This document shows, piece by piece, positions 781 to 54,400 of a stretch of DNA of 64,000 bases. The notes beneath the pieces were generated by a model that ran no database searches, was not told the DNA's origin, and worked only from the letters and a program-made list of their open reading frames with translations. Origin of the DNA: Protoeuglena noctilucae (taxonomy: Eukaryota). Positions within the stretch are counted from its first letter, which is position 1. Every line of letters begins with the position of its first letter. A program made the position numbers and the translations under genes. The stretch lies in contig OY253671.1 of the NCBI GenBank assembly GCA_958009085.1, positions 62,001 to 126,000 on the forward strand, read 5' to 3'.

Positions 781-3700
781 CTATCTCCCCCGCCCACGCT
801 CCTCATCCCTCTCCCTGCCCCTCCCCCAATCCCTGTCCCTATCTCTCCTATCCCTCTCTCTGTCCCGATCTCTATCCCGCTCCCTCTCTCTATCCCGCTC
901 CCTATCCCTCTCCCTCTCTCTATTCCTGTCCCTATCACCACCACCACCACGCTCTCTCCATCCATCTCCACGCCCCTCACCCCTCCACCGCCCATCCCCA
1001 CGACCCCCACCCCTGTTGCCACCCCTCTCACGCTCACCGCCCCTCTCACGCTCACGCTCGCTACCCCTATCCCTGTCCCTGTCCCTCTCCCTCTCTCTCT
1101 CTCCACCCCTCCCATCCCCCCTCTCCCTCTTCCCCCCACCCCACTCCCCCCCCCTCCCCTCCTCCCTGCCCCTCTTTCGCCCATCCCCCCTCCCACCCCC
1201 CACCCCCCCCACCCCCTCATCCCCCAACAGCATATCCGCACCCCCCCTCGCATTCCCCCCCATACCCATACCCATGCCCACCCTCGCCCCCCGCACCGCC
1301 CCCTCCTTTATTTCAATGTTAGACCACGCGCCCTGGCCGCCCCCACGCACGTGACTGCGAAGGGGAATAGAGATGGGAATGGGGATAAGAAGTGGTGTGT
1401 GCATCTACTTCCATCACCGGTAATGTGATTGCTACCAAAGAATATGAACCACAATCTCAACTATCACAACTGATAATCTATTGTCCACACTGATAGACTG
1501 TTACCATTCATTAATAGTACTTAATACTATTAAGTAGCATCCCCCCCTCACCGGTCTGCCTCGGCCGCCATCCCCGCGTCCCCCCCCCCTTTCCCCCTCA
1601 ATTTGAATTGCTTCCATAGCTTGGCCACCGATTGAGAGAAGTCCACCTTGATGCGGCGGTCGTCGATCAGGCTGGGGGGAGTGGGGTGGGGAATCCACAT
1701 TGATTAGTATTACTGAGAACTAACCAACATCTTGAAGTACGCTTCACCCACCTATTATTGTCCATCAAGTAAAGTATACTATATATTAGTATACTTAGTA
1801 TATAGTATACTAGTATATTTACTATGTACTAGTATATTTATGCACAACCCATCCCTCACCAGTTGTTCATCTTGAAGTACGCCTCCTCGGCCGCCTGCTC
1901 CGATTCGAACCCGATGAATCCGTAGTTGAGACTGTCGCCCGTCTTGTAGTCGCGAATGATGTTGCAGTCCACCACCTGAGATGGGTTGGGGAAGGAATGA
2001 TAATAACATGTTTCATCGTGACAACGTAACAGCAGATACTCCACATGTGCGGGGAAGCGATCATGGCACGTTGAAGCATCAAAACGCCACTCATCGCCAC
2101 CGTCACCATCACCACCCTCACCATCCCATCACTACCATCCCCCCTCACCGTTCCCCACCCAAATAACTACATAACCACTCGCCTTCCCGAACCGGGAGAA
2201 TATGATCTCCAGGTCCTCCTCCCCCGTCACCGGGTTGAGCTTGCATATGAACAAATGAGTTGATGGGGGCTTGACGTCCGCGTCTGGCAGGTCCCCAATC
2301 ATCTCCAGAACCACCGCGCGAGACGCAGCCTCCTGCCTGCGGGACTCTGCCTCGATCTCCTCCGCGGGTCTGCGTGGGGGGGATGGGATGGGAGTGGTGG
2401 TGTGTGTATATGGGTGTGTATATGGGTGTATGTCTGCCTGCGGGACTCTGCCTCGGTCTCCTCCGCGGGTCTGGGGGAGAGTGGGTGTGTATGTGTGGGT
2501 GTGGGTGTGGGTGTGGGTGTGGGTGTGGGTGTGGAGGTGTGCACCGGCAACGAGACGCTTGCTAAGAGCTGTCCATACCCCTATACCCATCCACCGATCC
2601 CCAGCCCTGTCGATACCCTTCCATCGCCGCAAACAACAAATCCGCACCCCACCCGACCCCATCGCAACTCGCCACCCTCGCTCCCCCACTCGCTACCCCA
2701 CTCGCCCCCCTCCCCACCACCCCCCACCTGTCGTCTTGGCCCGCCACCCATCCGTCCTCGATTCGATCCTTGGCGTCAAATTGCGGCTCCGGGGACTTCT
2801 CCGGGATCAGGGCTTCGATCCCCGGCATGTCCTCAAAAGGGTCGTCCAGGATGGCCGTGTGGCGGATGCTGGGGGGGTTGAGAGGGAATGAAGAGGGTGT
2901 TTTGTGCTCTGGAATATCAGTGCGTCACGTACGGACAGTGAGACATGGTCGCCGCTTGTTGTGAACCTCGTCTGTGTGTGCCATGAGAGGCGCGATTGCC
3001 GCCATCCCCCATGGTGTGCTCACCTACCCAACTACGCTCCTTTGCAACCTCTCCCCGCACGCTAGCTCTTCACCCCGCCACATCTGAGACACCATCGCCC
3101 TTTCTCCTCTCTTTCTCTTTCCCTCTCTCACCGTATGTTTTGCAGCGGCCGCTCGTCCCCGTCCACGGGCGCCTCGTTGATGCGCTCCAGCACGTCCATG
3201 CCCTCCGCGACCTCCCCGAATATCGTATGACGCTCGTCGAGGGACGAGAGGTCCGCGCCCTGCGTGGAATCGCGGGGAATCGCGAACGCTTTGTTACTGC
3301 AGTGACTCGGAACGCTTAATCGAAGCCTGCGGGCCGCCTCCGGGCGCGGATGCGAGCAAGGATGCATGTATAATAAAGCATACTACGCATTGCTCACCAG
3401 TGTGATGTAGAATCGCGACCCGTTGCCGTTTTTGAAGGTGCTCGCCATGCCCACCAGGCCGCGCCGACGGTGGCGCAGGTGCGGGCGGATCTCGTCGTCA
3501 AAGTGCTGCGCGGGCGGTAGAGATTGGCATTTATCAGACAATCGCGTCTTTGATGCATCGGGCGACGGCCCGGGCGACCGCGGCGCCTCGCCTTGGCATG
3601 GTCGCCGTAGACGAGCCCGTACGCCGACTCCCCGCCGCGGCCGGTGTTCGTCGGGTCGCCGGACTGCGCGATGAAGTTCTTCTGGACGTTGAAGAACAGG

Positions 3701-3946
3701 CAGTTGTTGTAGTACTTGAGCCTGCGGCGAGAGAGAGGCAGAGGTGGACGAAGCTTGCTCTGCTGCCTCCCCCGCGCACCCGCGGCGCAGTGGCGCGCGA
3801 TGGGCGGCGCCGATGATTAAGGGCAACGCTACTTATGCCGCGACTCACTTGCAGAGCTTGAGGAAGTTCTTGGAGGCCTGGGGGCAGTCGTCGACGTACA
3901 GATCGATCGTCAGCTCCCCCAGGGACGTCTCGAGGATCACCGCCAT
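781..3946 (-). CDS. CYP59: Cyclophilin-type PPIase with RRM and RD/RE-rich tail (CYP59/PPIL4 family), multi-exon
   Basis: Spliced translation: [33 protein letters not shown]...[15 protein letters not shown], then [36 protein letters not shown]...[15 protein letters not shown]...[15 protein letters not shown]. Last exon is RD/RE-rich to stop at 781. Exon phases were checked at the main junctions. Confidence 0.93.
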
Positions 3947-4318
3947 CGCCGCGGACCGCAGGCACGAATGTGCGCGCGGAGACGCGCGATAACTCTGCTC
4001 CGCCCTCTCCACGCGCGCGGGCCAGGGCCAAAACTCGTCTCTCTGAGAGAGAAGAGATTCAGCTGCCGCGGAAGCGCCCTCTCGCGGCTCCCGATGGAGT
4101 CGTGCTCAAACGCGCAACATCTGGTGCGAGATCGGAGCCCCGGGGACGTCGCGTCTTGCCAGGTCATTCCGACGACGGCGCGCAGGAGAGCCGTGGAGCG
4201 TCATCCGGCCGCGAGGGCGGCCGTCGAGGCTGCTGTTCCGCAGCTGTTGGCTGATCGTTCCCGATCGCAAGGGCATCCGAGGTTATCGCGCCGGGAGCGC
4301 CGCGGGGTGGCTGCGAGC

Positions 4319-13923: not shown

Positions 13924-16900
13924 ATGTCCCGGCCGTGGCCAGGCGCGACCGACGTGGGCGCGGGCCACACATCCGCCAGTGCAAACCGGCAGCCGGGCAC
14001 GCGGGCTCCGGGCTGGCGCGGTTCGCGCGGGAGGAATGCCGTCATTGCAAGGGTGAGGCATCGCTGCGTTCCCGTCGCGGCTCGGGCGGGCCAAAGCTCC
14101 TTGGCCGAGCAAAAAAGCAAGCGTGCCGCTTTTACGCGGCCGCGAACGCGACCGCCCCTCCGCCGCCCCGCGCAGGCGTCCCCGCTGGAGTCCGTGGCGC
14201 AGGCGGCATCGGACGCGGCGGGCCGCGTCGCCGAGGAGGTCACTTCCCTCGCTGCCCGTGTGCCGGGGGCGGTGGGGCCGGACGGGGCATTGCAAGACGG
14301 GTCGCTGCAGGACCACTGGGGCTCGCGCCTCGCCGCCGGGGCTGCCCGCGCCGCCGTCGACGCCGCGCGCGGCGCTGCGGGGATCTCTCCGGAGGGTGTC
14401 TGGGCAGACGCGGTATCGGCCGTGAGAGGCCTGCCGCCCGCCCTCAGCCAGGTGAGACTCGGCTCGTTGCATGGGTCCACGAGCGGGAATATACATTGTA
14501 TTCTTCTCATATGTGAGATGCGAATGGCGCTTAGTGTCTCTTGTAGGGTCGCTGCTAGCTAGCGAGCATGCCACCGTGCCAGCACAGGCCGAGCCACCGC
14601 TGGCATTTGCTACCATTGTCACTCTTACTCAATTATCGCTCCTCTTACCACCCCTGCAGTACCTGTCGTCAGCCGGGGGTCCTCTGTCCGCCGATGCGCA
14701 GCGACTGGCAGCAGATGCGACAGCAGCAGGGCAGGCGACAGCTGATGCCATCGCAGCACTTACGGGAGACGCAGCGCAGATCGCCGCGGACCTCGTCGGA
14801 GCGGCGCAGGCGCTGGTGACCGCTGCCGTCGCCCCGCTGGCAGCGCCGGCATCGGCGGGGGCGGCGGCGGGGGCGGCGTGGGCGGCGGCAGTTGCAGCGG
14901 CAGTGGCGGCGCCGTTCGTCGACCCTGCGCTGCTCTCCGGGGCCGGCGACGCCCCGCTGGTGTCCTCCGGCGCCCTCGCGACCCCCGCCTTCGCCGCGCT
15001 CGTCGCCACGGTGTTTCTGGCACCGCTGGCGGCGCTGCTTGTCAGCCGGTCGCGCGCCAGAAACGACGCCGACCAGCCTGGTGTCTTCGATGTGGACCCC
15101 GAGCTGCCCCGGGAATACAACGTGGATGCGCTCGCTGCCTATTATGCGAAGCGCCCGGGACAACTGATTGGCAGGGCCACGCAGACGGGGCAGCGGGTGA
15201 GGGGGGGCGGTGTATGGGATGATGTGATGTGGGGTGGAGCACGTTTGCGTGTGTGATGTGACATGTGACTCTGTTGTCCTGTCCATGACTGTTCGCATAA
15301 TAACTCTCTTACTGACTCTTCTCCCCTCTCATCTCCCCCAGGTGGGTCTCGTGGCCCTGGGCATTCTGACGGACGTGCGGATGGGGAGGGTGAAGGAGAA
15401 CGAGAGGATGCGGGCGAGGCAGGCGAGCCGTCATGTTATATTGAATACTAATGGTAATACTACCAATACTTAGTATACCATATGTAAGTACCACTGTATA
15501 AGTGTAGTACTACTCTAATTTACTATGTCTCCCTCAGAATCATTGTATTTCTCTTACTCTATTTTACTATGTATTCCCATTCTCGCGCAGGTCCGCGAGG
15601 CGTGCGAGGACCTGGGCCCCGCGTTCGTGAAGGTGGCGCAGGTGCTGTCGACGCGGTCGGACATCCTGTCGGACGCATACATGAGGGAGGTCATGAAACT
15701 GCAGGACCAAGTGCAGCCGTTCGAGACAGCGGAGGTGAGACTTGTTACAACCACCACTACTGCCACTGCCACCCTCAACCCCATCCCCCCTGCCACCCTC
15801 ATCACCACCCCCCACTGCCACCCTCAACACCACCCCCACTGCCACCCCCAATGCCACCCTCACTGCCACCCTGAACACCACCCCCACTGCCACCCCCACT
15901 GCCACCCTCACTGCCACCCTGAACACCACCCGCACTGCCACCCTCATCACCACCCCCACTGCCACCCTCACTGCCACCCTCAACACCACCCCCACTGCCA
16001 CCCCCACTGCCACCCTCAACACCACCCCCACTGCCACCCTCAACACCACCCCCACTGCCACCCCACCTCACCCCATACCCCACCCCATACCCCCCCCCCA
16101 CAAACCCAGGCCTTGGATCTGATGCGCCAGGAGCTGGGCCGCGACCCATCGGAGGTGTTTGCTTCTATCACCCCCGAACCTGTGGCAGCCGCGTCGCTGG
16201 GGCAGGTCTATCGCGCGACGCTGAGGGACGCGTATGGGGGAGGGGAGGTGGCGGTCAAAGTACAGAGGCCCAGGGTGCTCGAGAGGGTGGCGTTAGACCT
16301 GTACGTCATAAGGGAGGCGTGCCGGTGAGCGGGGTTTGGGGAGAGAGAGAGTTGAGAATGAGAGTTGTCCTATCTCATATCTCAGATCTCACTCACCTGT
16401 CACCTCTACCACCTCACCCCTCTCACCTCTCATTTCTCCCCTTCACCCCCAGCCTGGCCCACCAGCTCTTCCCCTCATCCGTCGCCACGGACTTCTCCCC
16501 CGTCATTGACGAATGGGCCGTGAGGTTCTTCCGGGAAATGGACTACACCATCGAGATGCAGAACGCAGTGGTGAGTTGGTGATATAGATACAGTAAAATG
16601 GACTTCACCATCGAGATGCAGAATGCAGTGGTGAGATTTAGTAGACTTTTATAGATAGCAGTAATGGATCGATCGTGTGCTTGTTATGTAATGATGCACC
16701 ATTGAGATGCAGAGCGTGCTATGATGCTGGTCGCTATAGTAATAGTTCATAATACAACAAAACAAAACAACATCACAAACTACCACCACGTAGCCATCAC
16801 CCCCGGCCCACCCATCCCCCCCCTCCCCCACCTGCAGCGTTTTGCGGAGGGCGTGCGCGGATTGGACGGCATCCTGGTGCCCCGGCAGTACCCCGACCTC

Positions 16901-19836
16901 ACCTCGCGCCGGCTGCTGGTGACGCAGTGGGTGGAGGGGGAGAGGCTGGTCGACTCGAAGGCAGACGACGTCAGGCGAGAGAGGGTTATATGTAATTATA
17001 TAATTATATAATATAATTATTGTTAATATATAAATGTAATACAATATAGTAACACGTGGGATAATGGACGGTGGCTGTTCTCATGGCTACATAGTACTCG
17101 GTAAGTATTACAACCCACTGTCTTATCCCCCTTATTCAAACCCAGGACCCTCTGCGACACTCTCTTGAATTGCTATCTGATCCATTATTATCCATTGCCA
17201 TCCAACCCAACCCATTCTCATCTCAAACCCAGGACCCTCTGCGACACTCTTTTGAATTGTTATCTGATCCAGTTACTCTCATCCTCATCCATTACCATCC
17301 CTATTCAATGAATGCAGGACGCTCTGCGACACTCTTTTGAATTGTTATCTCATTCAACTACTCGACACCGGATTCCTGCACGCCGACCCCCACCCCGGCA
17401 ACCTCCTCCGCACCCCCGACGGCCGCATTTGCATTCTGGATTACGGGCTCATGACCGAAGTGGACACCGACAAGCAGTACGCGTTCGTGGAGTTCATCGG
17501 TGAGTGGATGGGGTGGTGGGTTGGGTGGATATAAGCAGTATATGTTACTGATTGATATGAGCAGTACACCCATCTGAACCTCCCTTACTATATATTTGAT
17601 TTCCATCTCTCTTCCCACCCTTTCATAAACACAGTTACAAATATAAATAATATAATGAATGTCTCAAAATTACTTCTTACCCCCTCCAGGCCACCTGTCG
17701 ACCGGCAACTGGGCGGGCGTGGCTCAGGACCTGGTGAACCTGGAATTCGCCCCCCAGGGGTACACCAATTTGCTGGAGGTGGAGGGGTTTTTGGAGTTGA
17801 TCGAGCAGGCGAGGATTAGGGGGATGGGTATGCTCGAATTGGGATATGATTGTTTTACTGACACTGAGAAACCCAGATTACAATACCATTACTCTTATCA
17901 CCTTGTCCTGTCCCCAACTCCCTATCCCAGGTCCTGAGCGTCCTGATGCTGACGGGCGGCGGCGCCGACCGCGTGCAAGAGCGCGCCAGGTCCATGAACA
18001 TCGGGGTGGTGTTGGACGAATTGGAGGACATGAGCAAGGAGTACCAGTTCGTGATTCCGCCCTATTTCGCCCTCGTGCTGAGGGCCTTCTCCGTCATTGA
18101 GGGCATCGCGCTGAGGGTCGACCCGGACTACGCCATCGTCAAGGTGAGGGGTTGTGGGGGTGGTGGGTGTGTGTGTGGGGGGGGTGGATATGAAGAGATG
18201 GTGGAAGGACATTGATCCGGTTAAACTTGTATTTCGCATTGTCACTGTTGCACTCACTGCTGCCCTTGCTGTCGCCCCAACACCACCCCCACTGCCACCC
18301 TTATCACCACCCTCCACAACACCCCTCCTTAACCCCCCCCTCCCTCTCAGGAGTGTTTCCCTTACCTCTCCCGCCGCCTTTTGCGCGACCCCTCCCCCCG
18401 CATGCGCCAAGCACTGAGGGAGCTGCTTTATGACAAGGGAAAGCGCATCGACGTCGAGCGACTGAGGAGACTGGCGTCGGGACTGAGTCAGTTCACTACT
18501 GACGGTCTGACGGAGAGAGATGCAGGGGTGGGGGTGGGGGCGAGGGCGAGGGGGGGGCGTGTGTTGGATCGGACAGCAGTGGAGGCGGTGAAGGTGAGAA
18601 GGAGATTGGGGGGTGGTGGTGGTTGTTGTTAATGTATGTGTGTGTGTGGATGTGGTGGGTGGCAGTGTGGGTGTGGGCGTGGGTGTGGGGTTGCGGCTCA
18701 TAACACCACCACAGTTGACAACAACACCACCCCACCCCCATATCCCCGTATCCCCCACCACCCCGACAACACAGGTGGTGTTTGCCAAGGACGGCTCGTA
18801 CATCGCGGACCTTCTGGTGGACGAGCTTGCAGCGACCCTCCACGCATTGTCCCGTGAAGCGGGATTGGAGTTGACGCGGGCGGTGCTGAGCAGCGCGGCG
18901 GTGGCGGGGAGTCAGCAAGCGGTGCGGGCGCTGGGGCCACTACGGCCGATCGTGGCGCCCCTGCCGCTGCCCTCGGAGGTGAGGGGTTTTGGTAGATAGG
19001 CTGTGCGGGTGTGGGGTGTCTTGGTTGTTTGTTAAGATAGTCGGTCACAATCACAATTAACAGTCACCCACCAACCCCTCCCGTCTCAGGTCCTCGCCCG
19101 CCTGTCCCCCGCCGTCCGCCTCACACTCTCACCCTCACCGATAGTCACATACTATCAACCACAGTAAACAATCACAACAAACAATCACTCCCACCCATCC
19201 CATCCCCCACCTCAGGTCCTGGCCCGCCTGTCCCCCGCCGTGCGCCTGACCGAAGACGACCGCGTCGCCCTCCACAACGTGAGGGTGCTGTGGTCCGAAC
19301 TGCAGCCCATCATCACCAGATCCCTGGCACTGGCACCTGACGCAGCGAACTCGCTGTCAGGGGACCGGCTGCGTTTACTGGCGGAGGCGGGGGCGGAGCT
19401 GGGGGAGCTGTTGCCGGAGATCGCGCCGGGGCTGCAGAGGGCCAATCGGCGATTGGTGTCGGATCTGCTCAGAACGACCGCGGAGAGGCTCGTGCAGGTG
19501 AGGGTGGGGTGGGGTAGGATTGGGGGAATAAAGTGGGGTTAGTGGGGTTGTGGGGTGGGGTGGGGGTAGGTGTGGGGGGGGTGGGGTTGAGGAGTGCAGT
19601 GGTGGGCAGTGGTGATGGGGAGTGGGTGTGCAGGGGAAGGGTTGAGTGGGTGGTTTCACAGCACATCGTCACAGTCACAGCACATTGTCACAGTCACAGC
19701 ACATTGTCACAGTCACAACACTTCCGTCACAGCACGTTGCGATACGCATCAGGGTGATGCACCCACGCATCACCCTCCCTCCCCTTCTCCTTTCCCCCAG
19801 GATTTGGACGAGGCGCGCAAGATGCAGCTCGTTTGA
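13924..19836 (+). CDS. ABC1/UbiB-family atypical kinase (plastid ABC1K type), about 13 exons
   Basis: Motifs GPAFVKVAQVLSTRSD, AAASLGQVYRA, VAVKVQRP, HADPHPGN, LDYGLM, PPYFALVLRAFSVIEGIAL; stop at 19836. Start ATG inferred. Confidence 0.92.
15750..16065 (+). repeat. 12-bp minisatellite (CCCCACTGCCAC / CCTCAACACCAC) in an ABC1K intron
   Basis: About 25 tandem units visible. Confidence 0.9.
19656..19735 (+). repeat. 19-bp tandem repeat (CAGTCACAGCACATTGTCA) x3-4, intronic
   Basis: Direct tandem copies. Confidence 0.85.
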
Positions 19837-28658: not shown

Positions 28659-28663
28659 CGAGG

Positions 28664-42840: not shown

Positions 42841-45800
42841 TCATTCGCGCTGCCGCGCCGACCCCTCCGCTCCCTCCCCCGACGCGCGCCCCTCCCGCGC
42901 CACGCCGCCGCCCCTCCCCTCCCTCTCCCCCGCCCCCTCAACCCCCGCCACCGTTGCCGCTGCCGTTGCCGCGTGTGATGGCCTGTCCGGGTGCCTCGAA
43001 GCGCTGCCCGACGCCCTGGGTCCCCTGGCGTTGCGCGCCCTTGATGCGCTCGGGTTCGTGGCTGCCTTCTCTAGCTTTGCGATGTCGTGCACCACCTTCA
43101 TGTTGCCGGAGGTGGTGAGCCAGTCCTTGAACCACATCTGCACCGTCATCTGTGGATATGGGAGGAGATGAGAGTCAGTGTTTGAATGAACTATCACATC
43201 TGCACAGTCATTTGAGATGGGGAGAGAGAGAGCAGGTGAGGGAAGCAGTGAAGTAGTCACCACGCACACACCCACACCCACACCCACCCTCACCTGCAGC
43301 TCCACCTTTTTCGCGTCCGTCAGGTCCGCCCCCCTCACGGCATTCCTCAGCTCCGACACCATCCTAAGCTTCCTATCCAACGCGCTCGCGTACTCGGGGG
43401 GCAACGGGAACACCCCAGGCTCCAAGGTCACGCCCACGGCTGAGGATCCCAGTGCACCGTCGTCTTTGCGGGAAGTGCTCGGGACGCCGCCACCCACGCG
43501 GCCCGGGCCGCCGCTGGGGTGGGGGGTGAGGGTGGGGTGGGGTGGGTGAGTGGGGGTGGCAGTGAGGGGGTAGGTGGGTGAGGTGACTGGGCTGGATGAC
43601 TCAAACAACCGCATGATCGAAGCAGCAACTCCTCACCTCTCTCTGTAGTTGTGTTAACCCCAGCACAACCCCTCACCAGAAGGGTATGGTGAACGGCATG
43701 AGCGTGACAGCCGCTCTCTCTACCATAATCACATTCAACTGTATGTCACCATATCAATAACCCCCTCACCGGAAGGGGATGATGAAGGGCATGAGTGCGA
43801 CAGCCACATTCCCATGACACACTCAATCCATCAATGAGCACAACATATCTCACCGGAACGGGATGATGAAGGGCATGAGGGCGTCCGGCGGCAGTGCCTG
43901 GGCCTGTGGTGGCACAGTGGCATCGGCTGCCCAGGTCGCAGTGCGGCTGGCGGGGCTGCGGGGGTTCTTGGGGGAGTCGGGGGCGGCGGAGCGCGGGTGG
44001 CGGACCAGGGACTGCGGGGGGGTGAGAGGGGTGGGGGTGGCAGTGGCAGTGGGGGCAGCAGTGGGGGTGGTGATGAGGGTGGCAGTGGGGATGAGGAATG
44101 CCACAATATGCTATCTAACTATTCTTATCTCATTCCCTCACCAGCGGCTGGTCCCACAGGTTGACGAGGGACGCCACACGCACGGCGTCCATGTGCGCCT
44201 GCAGCCGCTCGTATCGCGTGCAGTAGGGGGCCACCTGGGATTAAGGGGAAAGAGGGAGAGGTATATTTTGTACTATTGCAGTAGAATAACAGTAAAAATA
44301 AATGTAATAATATTGTAACATTACTGTAAGCAATATTGTGGTGGTGGAGGTTTACATATCATAACATTGTACAGCATATTCCACCCCATCGCATCATCGC
44401 TCGTCTCGCCTGGATGCCCCGCGTGTCACCCAGCAGGTAGGGTGGGCGGTTGGTGCCCAGGTACAGCGTGCAGTTGTGGCAGGAGCTGACTGCGGGGGAG
44501 AGACAGAAGGGGAGCCAGTTAAGGTAAAGTAAAGTGCCAATAACTGATAACTCTGGCTTTCTAATTTCTAACACGAGCATATGTAATGACGGTCACCCCA
44601 TGAGCTTGACGCCCCTCGCAGTCGTTCAACCATACCAACAGTTATCATTGATGATAGCTGTGATAATTATGATGACTAACCAGCCATTCCCTCACCCGCG
44701 ATCCTCTTGCACGCGACGATGAGCTTGACGTCCTCGCACCTCTCCAGCCGAATGAACCGCCCCACCGCTCCCACCACGATCACGCAATTAGAACAGCCAT
44801 ACACGGTGCAGTAGTGGACGGGGACCAGAGCGTAGATGTGGGAGTCCTGGCAGGACTGAAGGGGGGGTGAGGGGGGTGAGGTCTTATTATAAGGGCTATA
44901 AGGGGTGGGTTACCAGGGGGATAAGGTTCGATCCCTGGCAAGGGCGGGACTGGGGGAGCATATCTAGCTACAGCTGCATATCGAATCTGTGATCTATCTT
45001 TAATATACAATCAACCATGGTTGATAATCATACCCACACTCCCCCTCACCACGATCCTGAGCGTCCCCGAGGGGCACGCGTCCTCCCCCCTCACGACCGT
45101 CTCCTTGACAGTGCCTGAGATGTCCTCGGCAGGGGCCAATGCCTGGAGCTGGGCGCCGGGATCGGGGCGGGGGACCACGGGCTGGAGGGGGGGTGTGGGG
45201 GGATGGTGAGAGGGGTGGGGGTGAGGGGTGGGTGAGGGGTGAGGGGTGTTAGGGTGGGTGAGGGTGCGGGGGCGGGGGAGGGAATGTGCTGTGATGAGGT
45301 GTGAGAGTGCAAAGAATGTACGATAACGTACCACGCACCCCTCCTTGTCCCTCACCAGCACCAGGTGCTTCTGGATGTGCTGCACGACCTCGGACGCGGG
45401 TGCCTCCTTGGAGTCTCGGAACTGCGAGGGGGAGATGCCATGGGGAGAGGTGAGGGTGGATCATTAGCACGTGCGATGGGGTGCAGTGCATGGCACGGCG
45501 GTGTGCATGTCACACTGCCACCAATACTCTCACTCGCTCACTCAATCAATGAATCAATCACTCATCTTCACTCACCATAAGCAGTGCTATTGATTCCTAC
45601 AATATAATCATATGCATGTCACAGTATCTCTTATCACTGACCATGGGCAGCGCGGACGCGATGGACCCGTGGCTGTCTACGCATGTCACTCACCATGGGC
45701 AGTGCTGCTTATGTATAAATCAATATTCTATACATAATACATTACTAATCATCTCACTTATCTCACCATGGGCAGCGCGGATGCGATGGACCCGTGGCTG

Positions 45801-47383
45801 TCGGTGGCGGTGCTGCCCACGGACGCCTCCAATTGAAGGAGCTGTGAGGGTGGAGAGGGGATGGGATGGGGTGAGTGAATTTGAATACGTGAGGTGATGA
45901 GGGGGGAGGGGTGGGGTGGGGAGGGGAGGCATGGAGATGGAGGGAGTGTGAGAACAGTCACGCCATCTCCCCCTCTCCCCCTCACCAGCGACAGTTGGTC
46001 CACCTGAGTTGACAATCAGTTTTATCTAGCAATAATGTAACATTAACGCACCCCCCACCCTCTCTTCCTCACCAGCGACAGGTGGTCCACCTGCGCCCTT
46101 GTGACCGTCACAGGAGTGCCTGCTGGGTCGTCCGTGCACATGGCCAATAGCGTCTCCGCGTATGTCTTGATGAAGTCCACATACTGAACCAGCGTCTGCT
46201 CCAATGCGGCCTTGAAGGAGGCGCCGGGGAGGGCACTGGGGTGGCAGTGGGGGTGGGGGTGGGGTTAAGAGTGGCAGTGGGGGTGGCAGTGGGGGTGGTG
46301 TTGAGGGTGGTGTTGAGGGTGGCAGTGGGGGTGGCAGTGGGGGTGGTGATGAGGGCGGCAGTGGGGGTGGCAGTGGGGGTGAGAGTGGGGGTGGAGCGGA
46401 GAGACATGCGTTTGCTCGTCATGCCACGCTGCCACACTCCCTGCACCACCACCCACCCCCTCATCCCTCTTCCCCACTCGTCACTCACCCCGGCGACCGT
46501 GGCCCCGAGGGCGAGGGCGGCCCCTGAGACACCGGCCACACCTCCACCGACTTGGCACTCAGCTCCTGGCCTCTCTTCTGCACCGTCTCGTACAGCTGGG
46601 TCATCAGGAACTGCGAAAGTCGAGCGGCATGGATACTCATTACAAGTTAGATGTATAGCAACTATGGCGCATGGTACGTTCGCCTGTGCCCGTGCGGACC
46701 ACTCCGTTGCGCTCTCACCAGAGACAGCGCGTGGCAGTCGACGTAGCGCGCGGCCCCGGGCCTCGAGGTCCCCTCCGGCGCCGCCTTCTCGTTAATCCCC
46801 GTCCGGATGACCTGGTATGGCGAAATGCCATCCAAAATGTCGAGCACGGCGCGCGCGTGGTGAGACGAGAGCCCGAACACCTCCCCGACCTTCTCGATCG
46901 TGCAGTAATACCAACCGTCCTCCTGAACTGCGTCTGCAATGCCGGGGCGCGGGCGGCGGGGCTCGCGGGTTGCTTGGCGATGGAAGCAAACGCTGCGCTC
47001 GTCGCGGAAACGCACCTTTCATCAGCTCCGCCGCGATCTCCTGCACCTGCGACACCTTGCGGAGGTCCGGAAGCACCCTGGAGGGGCGGGAGAGCAGCCG
47101 GGGATCGCGGGCAGCCGGAGGGGCCGCGCAACGACGCGCCAGCGCGCATCGGGCCGAGCGCCGCGAGGGGGCGTCCGCCGATGCACGGGCGCGGCGCGCG
47201 GGATCCTCGGCAGACGACGCACGCGAACGTCTGCCCGCGCGGCCGGCAAGCCACCGAGCGCGCCGGGCAAATTCAAAGGAAGCCCGCGCGGTCCGCGCCT
47301 GCGCGCGCCGGCCAAGCAGCGACTCACGAGTTCAGCGGGAGCATCCCGAACTCTAACGCCCGGCTCCGGACGGTGAGCGACAT
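42841..47383 (-). CDS. TBCC domain-containing protein 1-like (C-CAP/cofactor C beta-helix)
   Basis: ALEFGMLPL N-terminus, DISGTVKETVV, CQDSHIYALVP, CHNCTLYLGTNRPPYLLGDTRGIQVAPY, PFIIPF, QMWFKDWLTTSGN. Confidence 0.85.
46237..46392 (-). repeat. Same 12-bp minisatellite family in a TBCCD1 intron
   Basis: GTGGCAGTGGGG / GTGGTGTTGAGG units on the + strand. Confidence 0.88.
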
Positions 47384-48452
47384 GGCGCCCGACCCTCGCG
47401 CGCGCGGGGGGTCCCGCACGTGTCCCTGGCCACCCCCGACGGGGCCGAGCCGGCGAGGAGGGGTCCCGCGCCGCTGCTGCGGACGAGCACCGGTAGGAGG
47501 ACCTCACAGACTGCGCTGCTGGATGCTGGCAAGCCAAGATGGGCCGAGATGCGCGCTGCAATCTGGTCGGTCCGGCCACGCCGTGTGGACGACCTGGGAG
47601 TGCAAAGCGTCGTAGTTGTAAAGCGCAATGCGCGAGGCGTCGAGCTCAAAGCTCGATCGGCTTCCCTGGCAACGAAACCGATCGACGGGCACCCTCTCTC
47701 CTAAGCGCAGGGATGGTTCGCCACCACCACAACGAGCGTTCGCGACTGGGATCGTCGAAGCGAAGATCGATCGTCGCAAGAGCACCTCTCGCAACCCCCC
47801 ACGCCCCCGGTAGGCCACACCCGCGTCCGGTCCGGACCGGCCTTCACATAAGGGCAAGCTGTCCCGCGTGAGAAGGCTGTGGAGCATGCTGGCGCGGACC
47901 GCGACCGCCTCCCTGGGCTCCAGGGCGGGGACGAGGGCTGCGGGGAGCGAGGCGAGCCCGGTGAGCCGGACAGGCGGGGCGGACGCGGTTTCGAGTGCGC
48001 GTGGAACATCGTGATGTCATTTACAAGCCGTCGGTACTGGGATCCGCGTTCCCGGTGCGCCCGCCGGGCGCGAGGGCCCCCCGCACCTCGCGCTCCTGGC
48101 TGCGGAGAGAGGGGTCCCGTCGCCGCTCCCTGAGCGACGTCGCCGCGGCTTTCCGCATTTACGCTTTTCCCCGCGTATGCAAGTCTCTTCCGCGGATGCT
48201 CTCATCGCCGCGGAACGCTCCTCGGCCGCGTGTGCCTGGAGCGTTTCCTCGGTCGACCTCGCGGGGCCCGCGATGCGGCCGGAGCGAGCCCTCGTCGGTC
48301 GCGCTAGTTTCTTTGTTTGCACCTGCGTTCCTGGATAGCCCGCTTGGGCGCATCCGACCTCGCCGTCGCGGCCCGTTGCCTGTTGCATGCGGGCAACGTG
48401 ACGATTCACGCCCACTGTCCCGCCCCGTCGCCCGCAGTCGCTCCTCCGCGCA

Positions 48453-51400
48453 ATGTCCCTCCCCGCGCTCGCCTCTCGTCCGCTGCTGGCCGCCGCCCGA
48501 GCCCGCCAGCCCTCCGCGCGCCGGGGCGTGCTGCTGGTCCGATCCGCGGCCGCCGTCGCCGAGCCGATCAAGTACGCGGCCCCCCGCCAGGCGCACGGAT
48601 TCGAGCTCGTGCGGGAGAAGTTCGTCGCCGAGGCGAGAGCCGCGCGGATCAGCCACGCGCGGGGCGCTTTGAGCTCGATAATCACCTCATGTGCAATTTT
48701 ACTCGCGAACGGAGGTCAAACGGCCCCCGATTGACTCTCCCGCAGAACGATTCGCACGTGTTGATGTACCGTCACGTGAAGACGGGCGCGGAGGTGATGT
48801 CGCTGGTGTGCCGGGACGAGAACAAGTGCTTTGGCGCCGTGTTCCGCACTCCGCCCTCCGACTCGACCGGAATCCCCCACATCCTCGAGCACTCGGTGCT
48901 CTGCGGGTCCCGCAAGTACCCCATTAAGGCGAGGGGGCGAGCGAACGAGCGAGCGCGGCTGCACTGAGAGGTTCTGCAACACGCGCATCGACAGCACTTG
49001 CAACACCAGATTCCAAACCATCCCCCATCTCCCACCCCACCCCAGGAGCCCTTCAACGAGTTCATGAAGGGCTTTCTAGATATCCTTCTGGAAATGATAT
49101 CTTAACACCTCCCTCCATATAACCCCTCCCCCCATCTCCCCAGGAGCCCTTCAACGAGCTCATGAAGGGCTCCCTCAACACCTTTCTCAATGCCTTCACC
49201 TACCCCGACCGCACCTGCTACCCCGTGGCCAGCACCAACCTCCAGGACTTCTACAACCTGGTCGACGTGTACCTGGATGCCGTGCTGCACCCCAAGTGCG
49301 TCGACGACGAGATGACATTCAAGCAGGTGAGGAGTGGGTGGGGGGGGGTGGGGGTGGCAAGAGAGCAGGGGAGGGGGTGGGCGTGGGGTAAGCGAGTGAT
49401 CTGCATACAGGCTGGCACTTGGAGCTGGACAGAAGACAGCATCATGTTGGTATGTAATACTAGTACTAGATGTAAGACTAATTGTAATACTAACACTCAC
49501 AACCCCACTCCCCCATCCCCACCCAGGAGGGCTGGCACCTGGAGCTGGACCGCCCCGACGAGGACGTGACCATCAAGGGCGTGGTGTTCAACGAGATGAA
49601 GGGCGTGTACTCGCAGCCCGACTCGGTCTTCTATCGCACAGTCCAAGCGGAGCTGTTCCCTGACAACACGTACGGGGTGGACTCGGGGGGCGATCCTTTG
49701 GTCATCCCGGACCTCACGTTCAAGGGGTTCCGGGCGTTCCACCAGGTGAGTGATGGGGAAGTGGTGGTAGCTATTAGTATAATCATATAGAGAGTAATAT
49801 ACTTTCTATAATGGTTGTGTTCGAGGGGTTTGGGGCGTTCCACCAGGTGGGGGGCGGGGGGTGAAGAGAGCGGGGATAGAGAGTTAGAGTAGCCTTAATG
49901 AGGCAACTGGTGCAGCAGCACTGACCACCACACCTCATCTTTTTTACTACACTCTGTCAACACACAACATAGTACTAGCTAACACCCCCATAACGCATCG
50001 ATTCCCCCAGAAGTTCTACCACCCCTCCAACGCCCGCTTCTGGTTCTATGGGGACGACGCCCCCGAGGAGCGACTCCGCATTCTGGCGACGTATTTGGAC
50101 GAATTCGAGAAGAGGGACGTCGACTCGGCCGTGCCCGTGCACAAACTATTTCAGGAGCCCAAGAAGGGTGAGGGGGGTGGGGTTGGGTGGGGGTGTGGGG
50201 GTGGGGTGTGATGATGGGGTGGGGTGCATGGGGTAGCGATGAGCAAGGGGGTGGGGTAGGGGGTAGCGATGGGCGAGGGTGAGGGAAAGGGGTGGAGTGG
50301 GGTGGGGGTGGGGGGGTGATGGTGTGTGGGGGCCGTCACAACCCCACACCGCGTTCCCCCCACCTGTCGCACCTGCACGCGGTCCATACATTCCCTTACT
50401 TACTTACCATCTATCTCTGAATCCATCTATCCCAATCCCACCTTTCTCACACCACCATCTACCACCATCCATCCCCGCATCCATCTGTTCCAATCCCATC
50501 ATATCTATCCCACTCCCACCATATCTGATCCCCCCACCTCCCTCTCACAGTCACTAGGTACTACGCGGCAGGGTCGGCCGACGATGGCGACATGGCAATG
50601 GGAGAGGGCGAGGAAGAGGGAGTGATGGAGGAGGGTGCTAGTGAGGGTGCTGGTGAGGGTGCCAGTGAGGGTGCTAGTGAGGGTGCCTGTGAGGGTGGCA
50701 GTGAGGGTGCTAGCGAGGGCCTTACTGAGACTGAGAGTGGTCCCTCTGACAATGCAGCGTCGGACCGCAAGGCCTTTGCTTCCGTGTCGTGGGTGCTGAC
50801 GGATGAGGACCTGGATGTGCAGACAGAGCTGGCGCTGGGGTTCCTGGACTACCTCATGACGGGCACGGCAGCATCGCCACTGGTGAGAACGAGAGAGGGG
50901 GGGTGGGTGTAGTTGTAGGTGGTGATGGGGTAGGGTGAGGGGTGGGGGGTGGATGGGTGATGTGAGTGACGGGCACGGCAGCATCGCCACTGGTGAGGGG
51001 GTGGGGTGGTGGGTGTAGTGGGTCGCCGGCTGGCTTGCAAGAGTAATTGTAATGCCAAGTTGGGGTACCTCAATTACAACGTTGTCATGTAACTTGACAC
51101 CACCCTCTCCCCTCTCCCCTCCTCATCCCCAGCTCAAGGCGCTGAATGACTCCGGCCATGTCACTACTACAACCCGTAACACCCATCTCCCTTCCCCCAC
51201 CCACAGCGCAAGGCCCTGAACGACTCTGACCGTATCACTATTGTCCTTAACAATAACTTATAACACCCTATCCCTTCCTCATCCCCAGCGCAAGGCGTTG
51301 AACGACTCTGGCCTGGGCGAGGCGCTGGTGGGGGGCGGCATGGAGGACGATCTCAGGCAGCCGGTCTACTCGATCGGGCTCAAGGGGGTGGACCCCAAGG

Positions 51401-54400
51401 ACTGCGACAGGGTGGAGGCGCTGGTGTTGGAGACGCTCGAGGTGAGTGGGAGTGGTGATGGTTAACTCTACTTAGTACTACTTAGTGCTACTTAGGACTA
51501 CTAGTAAGGTGTAAAGGGCTGCGACAAGGTGGAGGCGCTGGTACTGGAGATGCTGGAGGTGAGAGTGGGGTGGTGGTAGTGGCGGTGATGGTGGAGGTGG
51601 TAGTGAGGGTGGTAGTGATGGTGGAGGTGGTAATTGAGGCACTGGTGTTGGAGACGCTCAAGGTGAGTGGTTGGTGGTGGGGTTAGTGTTGGTGGTGTTG
51701 GTGGAGTTCGGGGGCGTGCGATCGTGACTGGAGAGACGCACTAACCCCCCCCTTCCCCAATCCCCCCAGCGCCTCTCCCGCGACGGCTTCCCCTCTTCAT
51801 CGATCGAGGCTGCGATTAACACGATCGAGTTCTCACTGCGCGAGAACAACACGGGCCGCTTCCCCCGTGGTTTGTCGCTCATGCTGCGGGCGGTGGGGAC
51901 GTGGCTGTATGACAAAGACGCCTTTGAGGCTCTGGAGTGGCAGGGGCCACTGGAGGAATTCAAACGGAGGGTGAAGGAGGACCCGGGGGTGTTTGGGGGG
52001 TTGATCCGGAAGTATTTGCTGGAGAACAAACACCGGTGAGGGAGTTGACTTCGGGGGGGAGTAATAGGGGTGGTGTGTGGATGAGGGAGTGAGTGGATGA
52101 CTGACACCGGTGAGGGTTGGGTCACCCTCGCTGCCACCCCCACTGCTACCCCCATTCATCACCCCCCCCCCCCAGCGTCACCGTGAACCTGCTCCCCGAC
52201 TCTGAGCTGGGCCCTGCGATGGAGAAGCAAGAGAGGGACCGCATCGCCCGCGCCACTTCTGGCATGAATCAGTCTGACCGGGAGGCCCTGGTGCGTCAGA
52301 CCGAGGAGCTGAAGAGGAGGCAGGAGACGCCCGACGCGCCCGAGGCACTCAAGGTGAGAGGGGTGGGTGGTGGTGTGTGGTGAGAGAGAAGGGTGGGTGG
52401 TGGTGAGAGAGAAGGGATGGTGATGGGGTGGTGGTGGTAGTAATGATGAAAGAGAGTAGCCGGTGCTATCAGTGAGGTCCATGCGACCAGCAACCAACAA
52501 CCTCACCCACTCCCCCACCATCTAACCCCCTCACCCCCCACCCCTCACCCCATCACTCACCACTCACCCCACCCCATCCCCCTTCCCCCCCCCCGCAGTG
52601 CGTCCCCTCCCTCCAGCTCTCCGACATCCCCACGCGCGCCGCCACGATCCCCACGTCTACCTCAAACGAGCAGTCCGCGACTGTGCTGCGGCACGATCTC
52701 TTCACCAACAGCGTGCTATACGCGGAGCTTGCTCTCGACATGACGGGGGTCCCCATGCACCTCATCCCCCTCATCCCCCTCTTCTGCCGCTGCCTCACGC
52801 AAATGGGGACAGCGCAGGAATCGTTTGTGGAGCTGACCGCGCGCATCGGGCGCAAGACGGGCGGTGTCAGTGTGTCGCCTTTTGTGTCGGAAGTGAGGGG
52901 GAGGGCGGACCCGGCGGCTTTCGTGGTGGTCAGGTGGAAGGCGATGGGGGACAAGGCGGGGGAGCTCACGGGTGAGGGGGTGGGTGGTGATGGGTGGGGT
53001 GGTGGGGTGCATGTGAGGGGGAAGGCGATGGGTGACAAGGCGGGCGAACTGACGGGTGAGGGGTGGGCGGGGGTTTAGGTGGATGGTGGGTTAGAGCCAC
53101 ACAGACCGCCTCATCGCCTATCCCTTCCCCCGCGACCAGCCAACCGCATCTGCCCTCGTCTCTTCACCCACATCCACCCCACCTTTGCCCTCTTCCACCC
53201 CACCCCCCTCGCTCCGTATCTACTATTGCCCCTCCCCACCCCCCGCACCCGCAGACCTAATGCGCGACATCCTGCTCACCGCTCGCCTGGACGACCGCAG
53301 CCGTTTTCGGCAGATGGTGTTAGAGACCAAGGCGGGGCTGGAGGCGGCCGCGGTGGGGTCAGGGCACTCGGTGGCGGCTACGAGGCTCGACGCGCAGGTG
53401 AGGGGGAGCGGGAGATGTGATGCGTGATGAGAGATGAGAGCAAGAGAGTACTGAGGTGTATGGTTTGGCTGGGAAGGTGCGGTGGGTAGATAAGAGATGC
53501 TGGCGATGCATGGTCTGGTCTGCAGCAAGGGTTGTCACTAAGTACCGATGAGATGAGGTCTTAGGCTAAGATGTGGGTGCTGGTCTATCGAAGAGAGTTT
53601 GCTCGACAGCCCACTGCAACAGCCAAGCCATCCACGCCCGTCGTCATCCCATCGACCGGCCACCATCACGCATCATGCCCCGCACCCCCCCCTCACTCCC
53701 GCAGCGCTCGATCGCCGGCTGGGTGGGCGAGCAGTTCTCTGGCGTCACGTACCTCGACTTCATCCGCGAGTTGGCGCGGAGGGTGGAGAGCGACTGGGAC
53801 GCGGTTCGGGGCGATCTCGAGTCCATCCGCAGCGCACTCCTGCAGCGGCGGGGGGCGCTTGTGAATCTCACTGCCGACGCGGCGACGCTCGAGAGCAGCG
53901 CGGCGCACGTCAGCGGGCTGCTGGCGGCGCTGCCGGAGCAAGTGGCGGGGGCGGCGGGGCCGGCGTGGGCGCCGGTGTTGGTCGGGCGCAACGAGGCGCT
54001 GACGGTGCCGACTCAGGTCAACTATGTCGGCAAGGCGGTGAATCTGTACGAGGATGCGGGGTACAAGGCGAGGCGGGCTGGATGCAAGGCTTGGTGCATG
54101 CACGGTGGGGCAGGTGGATGACAGCGATAACAGCGCGTCGTGACGCTCTGCGGTTGGTCCTGGGCTCGGGCCCAGGATGAGCCCCAGAGCGGCTTGGACG
54201 CGCTGGTATCGCGGGTCGAGTTGCGGCATGCAATGAGCGAGCGGTGGTCAGGTTGGGATGGCGCAGCCGTTGCGAGCGTATGTAGACGCGCACTGTATTG
54301 CTCTCGCTGAGTTGAGCTGACAAGTTTGTCCCATTCCCCGCAGCTGTCCGGCGCGGCGTACGTCATCTCCAAGCACGTGGGCAACAGCTACCTGTGGGAC

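Follow-up and report, generated by a model that had tools for sequence, protein, structure and literature searches.

In the 64-kb stretch of DNA from the marine green alga Protoeuglena noctilucae that was analysed here (the window), local repeats read in their context form 22 clusters with 29 intronic copies, or "echoes", of an adjacent exon end. The echoes belong to short tandem duplications across exon-intron junctions, in which the unit measures ~50–220 nt. An echo and the working exon end appear to differ as two functional versions of a gene would, by ~0.3 at silent sites and in the flanks and by ~0.03 at amino-acid sites. The copies were probably not born as identical twins that later drifted apart, and the free decay of the echo itself seems to have lasted for a short period only. 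The preferred explanation, judged to have about an even chance of being right, is that the copies come from long-diverged functional exon versions and that recombination, unequal or illegitimate, or template switching joined them.

Detection and anatomy of the echoes

An unbiased self-comparison of the window, filtered for low complexity, returned 42 local direct repeats at offsets of 25–400 nt, as opposed to 1, 1, 0 and 0 at the control offsets of +1000, +3000, +6000 and +10000; a second scoring scheme gave 41 local repeats versus 1 and 1 in the controls. These numbers bear out the first-pass annotation, which had described intronic copies of exon ends with their splice sites, some of them in triplicate. 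Thirteen clusters are of the donor type, eight of the acceptor type and one falls slightly inward of an exon end; 21 of the 22 include the junction. The echo blocks are 13–51 nt long and lie 52–221 nt from the real copy, with two or three echoes present in CL4, CL5, CL13, CL14, CL21 and CL22. As read from the alignments, GTGAG is kept in 14 of 19 donor-type echoes and CAG in 8 of 10 acceptor-type echoes. In all 22 clusters the exon is copied at one end only, over 13–51 nt, and never as a whole. The introns that carry echoes are 140–406 nt long and also contain unrelated sequence.

The echoes are spread over at least seven genes within 64 kb, at donors and acceptors alike, with nine clusters in the PreP gene. 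The only sequence that a given echo resembles is the exon next to it, and no dispersed repeat family was detected in the 64-kb window, where 0–1 repeats other than low-complexity ones occur at offsets of 1–10 kb. Among arrays with a period of at least 50 nt, TRF finds two echo arrays, with 87-nt and 84-nt units and 81–82% matches, one coding repeat and nothing else, and thus no intron-only array of such a period in the window. The self-comparison contains three short intron-only repeats (CL3, CL6 and CL19), which were kept out of the codon tally as purely intronic, together with CL2 and CL26, for which the boundary or the coding status is unclear. Of the gene names given earlier, CYP59-like (RRM and cyclophilin domains), ABC1 and TBCC are supported by Pfam and PreP by tblastn, whereas the short ORFs named SEC23-like, phosducin-like and CPBP-like gave no Pfam matches.

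Clusters along the window

Two clusters belong to the CYP59-like gene on the reverse strand. The donor-type CL0 (1728..1885) is found at the exon with the RRM_1 Pfam match, with the real exon end at 1868-1885 and the echo, which differs by one synonymous change, at 1728-1745; this echo shows an apparent 6-nt in-frame gap followed by a donor-like GTTAG site. In the acceptor-type CL1 (2333..2473), the real copy at 2333-2372 (CAG at 2370-2372) and the echo at 2434-2473 are identical in 39 of 40 nt, the one difference being non-synonymous (I/T).

The ABC1 kinase gene, on the forward strand, contains three clusters. The donor-type CL4 (16536..16716) has its real copy at 16536-16575 and echoes at 16596-16635 and 16697-16716, with two synonymous and two non-synonymous differences; at both of the latter it is the echo that has a residue rare or absent among homologues (which have Y in 76/77 and N in 43/43). 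The acceptor-type CL5 (17136..17363), at the ABC1 Pfam match, is made of an 87-nt unit repeated 2.5 times, with echoes at 17136-17184 and 17223-17278 and the real exon start at 17318-17363 (CAG at 17315-17317), and all 10 counted codon differences in it are synonymous. The acceptor-type CL27 (19090..19251; echo 19090-19125, real copy 19216-19251), with four synonymous and no non-synonymous differences, was detected only by translated self-comparison.

The next clusters lie on the reverse strand. In the donor-type CL7 (20988..21105), the echo at 20988-21012, with the donor GCGAG, differs from the real copy at 21081-21105 by two synonymous changes. CL8 (22067..22216) is the weakest cluster, matching in 16 of 18 nt; its echo (22067-22084) duplicates a piece of exon lying slightly inward of the exon end (22199-22216), with two synonymous differences. 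The acceptor-type CL9 (24662..24811) pairs a real copy at 24662-24701 with an echo at 24772-24811, identical in 39 of 40 nt with one synonymous difference. Two donor-type clusters follow: CL10 (29643..29787; echo 29643-29690, real 29740-29787), with one synonymous and two non-synonymous differences (E/Q and K/R), and CL11 (31092..31190; echo 31092-31128, real 31154-31190), in which all three exon-part differences are synonymous and 16 intronic nt past the junction are identical between the two copies.

Further along the reverse strand, the acceptor-type CL12 (43133..43214) has its real copy at 43133-43152 and an echo at 43195-43214, with one synonymous difference and CAG changed to CAA; it is bridged by the X5 metagenome contig 43000-44086. 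The donor-type CL13 (43669..43889), also bridged by a metagenome contig, has echoes at 43669-43712 and 43762-43805 and a real copy at 43846-43889, with five synonymous and one non-synonymous differences. The donor-type CL14 (45568..45803), in the gene with the TBCC domain, is bridged by X5 44061-45893 and X6 45257-45875; its real copy lies at 45759-45803 and its echoes at 45634-45677, 45686-45706 and 45568-45588, with two synonymous differences, the last echo resembling only another echo and being left out of the tally. In the donor-type CL15 (45971..46093), the echo at 45971-46006 and the real copy at 46058-46093 show one non-synonymous difference (H/Q).

The PreP clusters are on the forward strand. 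In the acceptor-type CL16 (49040..49171; echo 49040-49073, real 49138-49171), the single, non-synonymous difference places F in the echo as opposed to L in 88/88 homologues, and the downstream, real acceptor is used in RNA. The acceptor-type CL17 (49410..49550) has an echo without CAG at 49410-49430 and a real copy at 49530-49550, with one synonymous difference (CTG/TTG). The donor-type CL18 (49718..49849; real 49718-49748, echo 49819-49849 with the donor GTGGG) shows one synonymous and two non-synonymous differences, and for one of these, K/E, the commonest residue among homologues sits in the echo (E in 55/93). The copies of the donor-type CL20 (50857..50997; real 50857-50887, echo 50967-50997) are identical in 31 of 31 nt. 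In the acceptor-type CL21 (51110..51313), both echoes (51110-51157 and 51184-51231) have one breakpoint in common, and they differ from the real copy at 51266-51313 (exon start 51289) by five synonymous and two non-synonymous changes, both echo residues being absent among homologues.

The remaining PreP clusters are of the donor type. CL22 (51397..51670; real 51397-51446, echoes 51514-51563 and 51636-51670) has four synonymous and four non-synonymous differences, and at one of them, R/K, the echo residue is that of 71/94 homologues. CL23 (52030..52116) is a 13-nt block, ACACCG|GTGAGGG, present without differences at 52030-52042 (real) and 52104-52116 (echo). CL24 (52929..53063), with its 84-nt unit, pairs the real copy at 52929-52979 with the echo at 53013-53063 and has five synonymous and one non-synonymous differences; the working exon has W and the echo has G, as do 84/87 homologues.

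Presence in independent assemblies

Assemblies are known to err by concatenating divergent haplotypes or strains in tandem, and the echoes resemble such false duplications in that they are tandem copies differing as alleles do. However, two independent marine metagenomes, short-read assemblies of samples from a different study, have single contigs that run across 9 of the 12 clusters in the compared stretch and match the window with no differing letters and no gaps. CL15, CL20 and CL24 are unbridged among the contig pieces listed, and a loose contig end lies at 52971 in CL24. At CL20 the contigs listed break at both copies, and those of the deeper run end and begin anew there, which is the behaviour expected of a true, exact 31-nt repeat in a k=31 graph. 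The concatenation that the first-pass annotation had named as fatal to its proposal is thus effectively excluded, and an artefact is given only a negligible probability.

The copy numbers in the two metagenomes are the same as in the window, as read from contigs, which drop rare variants. The two metagenomes match the window and no variant is listed at the exons, so they show no sign of a second haplotype with 90% identity or more. No close relative was found in the protein or metagenome collections, the best matches being at 74% and 70%.

Codon differences and decay of the echoes

The tally of 28 echo-versus-exon blocks (244 codons) gave 50 synonymous and 17 non-synonymous differences, a small sample of 67 in which copies within arrays are not independent and the reading frames of nine clusters come from the open frame and GC3 only. 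The differences fall at codon positions 1, 2 and 3 in the ratio 12/10/46, with pS of 0.29, pN of 0.03 and pN/pS of 0.10. This independent count agrees with the earlier hand tally of ~47 to ~15, and the claimed synonymous excess over neutral decay stands against both neutral nulls. A permutation test that preserves substitution types predicts 33% synonymous differences (20.6/63), as opposed to 46 observed, a value reached in 0 of 20000 shuffles; the control is for base identity only, and the argument takes neutral mutability to be the same at all codon positions. Under the null of a neutral echo and an exon that changes only silently, 49% would be synonymous and 75% are (binomial P=2e-5). With one echo per cluster, the ratio is 32 synonymous to 13 non-synonymous.

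G/C swaps account for 16 of the 50 silent differences. Silent changes go both ways in similar numbers (20 S>W, 14 W>S), much as might be expected between two sequences under the same codon regime. Differences between echoes are also enriched at third positions, ~13/22 as counted by eye, which could indicate that sites of this type are intrinsically more mutable or that echoes exchange sequence with the working copy.

Homologues polarise 12 of the amino-acid differences: the rare or absent residue is in the echo at nine, being absent among homologues in eight and seen in 1/77 in one, and the working exon is derived at three. The echoes are therefore in decay at present, and coding selection on them is unlikely. 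Decay in the echo lineage is estimated at ~0.03 per site, about tenfold below the silent divergence of ~0.3. In PreP, echo-lineage change of 0.034 per site compares with 0.23 per silent site remaining, and under an equal-time model one would expect 4.2 silent differences, as opposed to the 16 observed (Poisson P ~1e-5). The intron-derived flanks score z<2 in 11 of 24 comparisons; in the others they align in patches only, at about 65–75% identity and with numerous gaps. With a divergence of 0.25 or more, they exceed by far twice the echo decay of 0.03. Translated self-comparison revealed no echoes of great age, in which the protein would be conserved and the DNA saturated, its seven low-identity matches being at the noise level of the controls.

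Splicing of echo-bearing introns

Metatranscriptome contigs cover 11 PreP introns and join the exon-contiguous sites in 7/7 of the echo-bearing ones. In PreP the donor used is the one furthest upstream and the acceptor used is the one furthest downstream, and no junction to an echo is present among the joints listed for the PreP RNA contigs, in which rare isoforms are invisible. In PreP the echoes are therefore spliced out, and the tandem duplications are tolerated because the extra copy becomes intronic and is removed.

The first-pass annotation had proposed that the echoes may be kept by coding selection as alternative splice ends, a suggestion with which the RNA and the polarised residues disagree. 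Selection in place that mirrors coding constraint might act on minor-isoform exon ends, or indirectly, through gene conversion or unit loss that moves echo sequence into the exon. The low pN/pS and the splice signals, intact in most echoes, are in line with it, and minor isoforms could escape contigs that lose rare variants. However, splicing at an echo site would retain the spacer in the message, the offsets are multiples of 3 in only ~1/3, and both spacers that are read in frame (CL22 and CL27) hit stops. The rare or absent echo residues and the lack of old protein-conserved echoes in the translated search also count against it. The indirect form appears to fail on scaling, as the 29% silent divergence would cap the transfer rate at a few times the mutation rate, and Ne*s would therefore be about the nucleotide diversity, far below 1. 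Selection in place is accordingly considered improbable.

Origin of the duplications

The main rival to a join between diverged versions, held to be possible but clearly less probable than it, is tandem duplication in cis by slippage, unequal sister exchange or templated repair on the same molecule, with copies identical at birth, an echo that decays and an exon that changes silently. The silent excess would then result from this asymmetry together with chance, the non-independence of arrays or more mutable G/C-rich third positions. The tandem units with their two TRF arrays, the flanks that do align (z up to about 5–7), the full identity of CL20 and several echoes only one site off their exon all suit such an origin, as do the decay of echoes at conserved residues, the third-position enrichment between echoes and the absence of diverged alleles from the sampled population. 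On the other hand, both the overall synonymous share and the silent differences in PreP are well over what it predicts, and the flanks have diverged much further than echo decay allows. Moreover, intron-only duplications with units of this size should be roughly as common and easier to detect, as opposed to none by TRF and three short ones by self-comparison.

In the preferred reading, a join between long-diverged homologous sequences, an unequal or illegitimate crossover or a template switch in repair or replication would have produced the echoes. Candidate partners are deep alleles, homeologous chromosomes or those of a hybrid, and a haplotype block that does not recombine. They would pair at the conserved exon edge, and since their introns are unalignable the join would be offset by 50–220 nt. 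Offsets that duplicate a junction would be harmless and stay recognisable, those confined to an intron would be harmless and become unrecognisable, and those inside exons would be purged by selection. Once two copies exist, ordinary unequal exchange between them may add a third, with the breakpoint kept. The earlier proposal of capture from divergent alleles thus fits the contrast between echo decay and silent divergence and the poorly alignable flanks, but no donor lineage was found for it. Taken as independent offset joins, the nine PreP clusters would require a very high event rate, which counts against this origin.

Comparison with known systems

The closest likeness is to human F7, in which, as outlined in PMC1557585, a 37-bp minisatellite of intron 7 has its first unit across the exon 7-intron boundary, and the authentic donor is followed by silent pseudo-donors, the most upstream site being chosen. 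There, too, tandem units start in the exon, and PreP likewise uses the upstream donor. The F7 array, as outlined there, is a single locus with identical pseudo-sites and homogeneous units, whereas the window has 22 clusters in 64 kb and at least seven genes, includes acceptors, and has units with barely alignable intron parts and exon parts that differ mostly silently. Units that take in the exon end and splice site (21/22 clusters) and sole use of the exon-contiguous site (7/7 echo-bearing PreP introns seen in RNA contigs) are thus common to both systems, and the homogeneous head-to-tail array is not, as TRF detects only two echo arrays.

Intron gain by tandem duplication of an AGGT-containing exon segment, as summarised in PMC3265369, PMC4974935 and PMC2891723, similarly involves a short duplication with splice-site sequence that is neutralised by splicing. 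In those summaries the new intron is the duplicated exon sequence, whereas the echo duplications take in pre-existing intron sequence, and lengthen an intron rather than create one: the echoes lie 52–221 nt away inside introns of 140–406 nt with unrelated sequence. Mutually exclusive tandem exons, in which an entire exon is doubled together with its two splice sites and either version enters some mRNA, do not match either, with one exon end copied and no echo junction among the joints listed.

Template switching in break-induced replication and homology-facilitated illegitimate recombination would yield just the echo anatomy, with one side anchored by homology and the other joined at an offset without it. 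The echo data point to no particular enzymatic route, and neither process is known for dense, fixed traces where exons meet introns.

Introners form dispersed families whose members resemble one another and have short target-site duplications. Unlike them, an echo has its only likeness in the adjoining exon, and dispersed similar copies are missing from the 64-kb window (0–1 repeats at 1–10 kb). The likeness lies elsewhere: introner elements and transposon-derived introns are presented in PMC9860276 as a lineage-specific, high-density remodelling of introns in marine algae, and the echoes too are a lineage-specific, high-density intron remodelling in a marine alga.

Exon-end repeats and their anatomy

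The window is GC-rich (52–72%) and contains many introns, with GTGAG donors, CAG acceptors and short-period GT- or AC-rich repeats inside the introns. Self-comparison at offsets of 25–400 nt, with low-complexity matches filtered out, detects 42 local direct repeats, as opposed to 1, 1, 0 and 0 at control offsets of 1, 3, 6 and 10 kb; an alternative scoring scheme gives 41 local repeats and 1 and 1 in the controls. Inspected in gene orientation, these repeats include 22 clusters with 29 “echoes”, intronic copies of the adjoining exon end with its splice site, so that the copies claimed in the first-pass annotation are confirmed against a background of 0–1 repeats. Thirteen clusters copy a donor junction, eight an acceptor junction and one lies just within an exon end. 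The echo blocks are 13–51 nt long and are placed 52–221 nt from the working, exon-contiguous copy, with two or three echoes in six clusters. Read by eye, GTGAG is retained in 14 of 19 donor-type echoes and CAG in 8 of 10 acceptor-type ones. Five repeat clusters were left out of this set, three as purely intronic (CL3, CL6 and CL19) and two as ambiguous (CL2 and CL26).

The intron-derived parts of the repeated units either align in patches of ~65–75% identity broken by numerous gaps or fail to align, and TRF found no long-period array built of intron alone in the window. A translated self-comparison for ancient echoes yielded one extra cluster, CL27 in the ABC1 kinase gene; apart from it nothing exceeded the control level, and no old echo with conserved protein and saturated DNA was found in the window. 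The repeat scan applied to 26 other loci, at most a few of them from intron-bearing algae, returned marginal matches with scores of 31 or less, the one exception being an unrelated element in locus L007.

In the acceptor-type PreP cluster CL16 (echo 49040–49073, working copy 49138–49171) weak similarity, counted by eye as roughly 12 of 28 nt, continues beyond the 34-nt block between 49074–49100 and exon positions 49172–49198. The corresponding peptides are KGFLDILL and KGSLNTFL, followed by a stop in the echo-side sequence; this extension may be due to chance or represent an earlier echo, decayed and since renewed in part.

Gene content and relatives

Pfam and tblastn locate a CYP59-like gene with RRM and cyclophilin domains (1.5–4.1 kb, minus strand), an ABC1 kinase gene (14.9–19.5 kb, plus strand) and the presequence protease PreP (48.4–55.3 kb, plus strand), along with P-II, GCK-domain, TBCC-domain and HATPase_c_3 genes. 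The closest relatives of the PreP exons in the protein collection are a metagenome protein (74%) and a pedinophyte protein (72%), and the best matches in metagenome_contigs reach 67–70%. Such distant best relatives of PreP indicate that the window comes from a chlorophyte without a close relative in the collections searched; likewise, no relative near enough for a nucleotide-level match to the echo variants was found in the protein or metagenome collections. Among public runs, the stretch occurs in four from a single organism and in marine metagenomes and metatranscriptomes.

Several other repeats are present. An AATAGT hexamer microsatellite (22322–22575, 42 copies, 95% matches) lies within a low-GC stretch, and four copies of a 111–114-nt unit (55676–56126) form a protein-coding, Pro/Arg/Ala-rich tandem repeat within the minus-strand ORF 55437–57356, which has no Pfam match. 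Repeats of 12-nt period, GT-rich on one strand and AC-rich on the other, for example GTGGCAGTGGGG, are common to many introns (46239–46394, 51571–51632, 15763–16063 and others). Metagenome word depth rises from ~14 to 480–975 at these repeats, which points to great abundance of this family, either in the genome or in the community as a whole.

Physical reality and splicing

Contigs of two marine metagenome and two metatranscriptome runs were aligned to positions 43000–53200 at a likeness of at least 90%. Nine of the 12 clusters in this region are spanned by single DNA contigs with no other letters and no gaps, including CL21–CL23 in PreP (contigs 50968–52152 and 51013–52172) and CL14 in the TBCC-domain gene (44061–45893). 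Among the contig pieces listed, CL15, CL20 and CL24 are unbridged. CL20 is a perfect repeat of 31 nt, where the contigs listed for the deeper run break off and then resume, as expected of a true repeat that splits a k=31 graph. The metagenome runs and the organism-labelled runs, which contain the whole stretch, belong to separate studies. This excludes a concatenation artefact in the reference, and with it the joining of haplotypes by assembly that had been named as one possible refutation of the echoes. Many contigs of 90–95% likeness stack on low-complexity bins. No second haplotype at 90% identity or more was found in 43000–53200 in the two marine metagenomes, where a single variant is listed over ~10 kb including introns (46349 A>G, within a 12-nt repeat), suggesting that the natural population is nearly invariant at this locus.

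RNA contigs reveal 10 junctions in PreP, plus a loose end at 52971, and in all seven echo-bearing introns among these 11 splicing takes the exon-contiguous site, upstream for donors and downstream for acceptors; the joints listed cover PreP and none of the minus-strand echo introns, and contigs are blind to rare isoforms. The suggestion that echoes serve as alternative splice ends is thus not supported in PreP. Recursive splicing is also unlikely, since no pyrimidine tract precedes the echo AG|GT.

The RNA contigs further link an upstream exon (~47754–47959) to the initial coding segment of PreP through the joint 47959>48437, a 477-nt GT..AG intron that is probably in the 5′ UTR. Another joint, 50651>50757, removes 105 nt comprising most of a 12-nt repeat array (50631–50719, unit GAGGGTGCTAGT, 7.4 copies) with an open Gly/Glu/Ala/Ser-rich frame, and this intron consists largely of coding-like minisatellite.

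Divergence at silent sites

For PreP the reading frames follow from tblastn, and for the RRM and ABC1 exons from Pfam matches; the remaining ones were assigned as the sole open, highest-GC3 frame, which is clear in 13 of the 14 contexts examined. The comparison of echo with exon covers 28 gapless blocks (244 codons), in which differences at codon positions 1, 2 and 3 number 12, 10 and 46. The tally of 67 differences from one 64-kb window divides into 50 synonymous and 17 non-synonymous (pS 0.292, pN 0.030, ratio 0.10), an independent count that agrees with the ~47 and ~15 obtained by hand in the first-pass annotation. With one echo per cluster the proportion is 32:13, and echo-versus-echo differences appear by eye to be likewise rich in third positions.

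When each base change is relocated to a random site bearing the same base, 20.6 of 63 changes are expected to be synonymous and 46 are observed, a value reached in 0 of 20000 shuffles; base identity is the only factor controlled for, and the inference of origin treats the three codon positions as equally mutable when neutral. A fairer null, in which the echo decays freely and the exon takes silent changes only, expects 49% synonymous differences, and 50 of 67 are observed (binomial P=2e-5). Heterogeneity of silent divergence among blocks was not detected, in a test of low power (X2 29.0, 26 df, P=0.31). G and C are exchanged in 16 of the silent differences. Changes from strong to weak and from weak to strong are balanced (20 and 14), which contradicts a directional shift in codon usage. 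CpG hypermutability can be rejected as the cause, because it predicts equal numbers of changes at position 2 of NCG codons and at position 3, where 1 and 11 are observed.

Polarity of the changes

Ten amino-acid differences in PreP and two in the ABC1 kinase were set against 94 and 78 long homologues, respectively. In nine of the 12 the conserved residue is in the working exon, and the echo residue occurs in none of the homologues (eight cases) or in 1 of 77. These changes strike invariant residues, showing that the echoes are not under coding selection now, contrary to one of the explanations first proposed for them. In the other three, the common residue is in the echo and the odd one in the working exon; thus a W codon in the working PreP exon (52935–52937), whose letters are matched by RNA contigs, stands opposite a G that is found in 84 of 87 homologues and in the echo (53019–53021).

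Decay of the PreP echoes amounts to 7 changes over 203 non-synonymous-type sites, or 0.034 per site, as compared to 16 silent differences over 61 sites. Equal divergence time for both PreP copies predicts ~4.2 silent differences (Poisson P ~1e-5). Hand-summed over PreP and ABC1, there are 9 changes over ~332 sites and 32 silent differences over ~100 sites.

Origin of the echoes

In the exon part of the echoes the amino-acid sites are conserved, the divergence at silent sites is similar to that of the intron alongside, and decay of the echo is a small fraction of the total silent divergence. A conserved protein with diverged silent sites and slight decay is what one sees between two functional copies when one of them has lately fallen out of use. 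Origin from diverged functional copies is therefore the best-supported reading, as yet unproven. We give an even chance to the view that the echoes are offset joins between long-diverged homologous sequences, which could arise by unequal or illegitimate crossover or by template switching in repair or replication. The exon edge would serve as anchor for the join, and resolution would take place in the unalignable intron. Offsets spanning a junction would alone be both harmless and recognisable, which would account for the involvement of exon ends in nearly every repeat that can be detected. Arrays with shared breakpoints, such as CL5 in the ABC1 kinase gene and CL21 in PreP, may expand later by ordinary unequal exchange.

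A more specific version, held tentatively and with slightly less than even confidence, is that the echoes are recombination or template-switch scars between deeply diverged functional haplotypes that pair only at exon edges, from which a fossil record and a main driver of intron turnover would follow. Each offset join would deposit within the intron the other haplotype's exon end together with some of that haplotype's intron, and the haplotypes could derive from hybrid or homeologous ancestry or from a long-lived non-recombining block resembling a mating-type region. The capture of divergent alleles, already suggested in the first-pass annotation, is favoured by the branch asymmetry, the synonymous excess and the unalignable flanks; against it, no donor lineage was found: the two metagenomes have no listed exon variants, and a close relative is absent from the collections. 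Three further points weigh against an origin from diverged copies, namely the assumption of equal mutability at the codon positions, the third-position richness of differences between echoes as counted by eye, and the sample of 67 differences from a single 64-kb window.

Plain tandem duplication in cis followed by decay accounts for the anatomy of the repeats and for the decay at conserved residues, but it leaves unexplained the branch asymmetry, the divergence of the flanks and the scarcity of intron-only duplicates; it is the main rival, though clearly less likely. Long target-site duplications of an inserted element can be rejected because such copies would start identical. Constraint of the echoes in place by selection is quite improbable in view of the RNA junctions at exon-contiguous sites, the echo changes at invariant residues and the missing old echoes. 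Indirect selection through conversion or loss of units fares no better, as a transfer that leaves 29% silent divergence would be too slow for selection to act. An assembly artefact, hardly credible given the independent bridging contigs, is the least probable of all.

Comparison with known systems and implications

The closest described case found is the minisatellite in intron 7 of human F7, in which the first unit spans the exon–intron boundary and the pseudo-donors are silent downstream of the authentic upstream donor (PMC1557585). The echoes share its splicing logic and differ in their higher density, the involvement of acceptors, the heterogeneous units and the silent-site divergence. They do not match intron gain by AGGT duplication, introners, whole-exon duplication or haplotype artefacts, and no account of dense exon-end copies with silent-site divergence was found in the literature outside closed journals.

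Whatever their origin, the echoes form natural arrays, by the dozen, in which intact splice sites go unused, a test set for splice-site choice. They also show that dN/dS-like signals can arise in untranslated sequence, which calls for caution in gene finding and selection scans. If the copies stem from diverged functional versions, each echo keeps a fragment of an ancient allele or partner genome that has otherwise disappeared, and past hybridisation or deep haplotype structure would be directly readable in a marine alga at uncultured scale; under the lost-partner reading this would be a datable, site-by-site fossil record of the partner genome. An exon-edge-anchored recombination route, offset in unalignable introns, would then renew and lengthen introns with the protein untouched, and in this lineage the process would be among the main forces behind the lengthening and turnover of introns.
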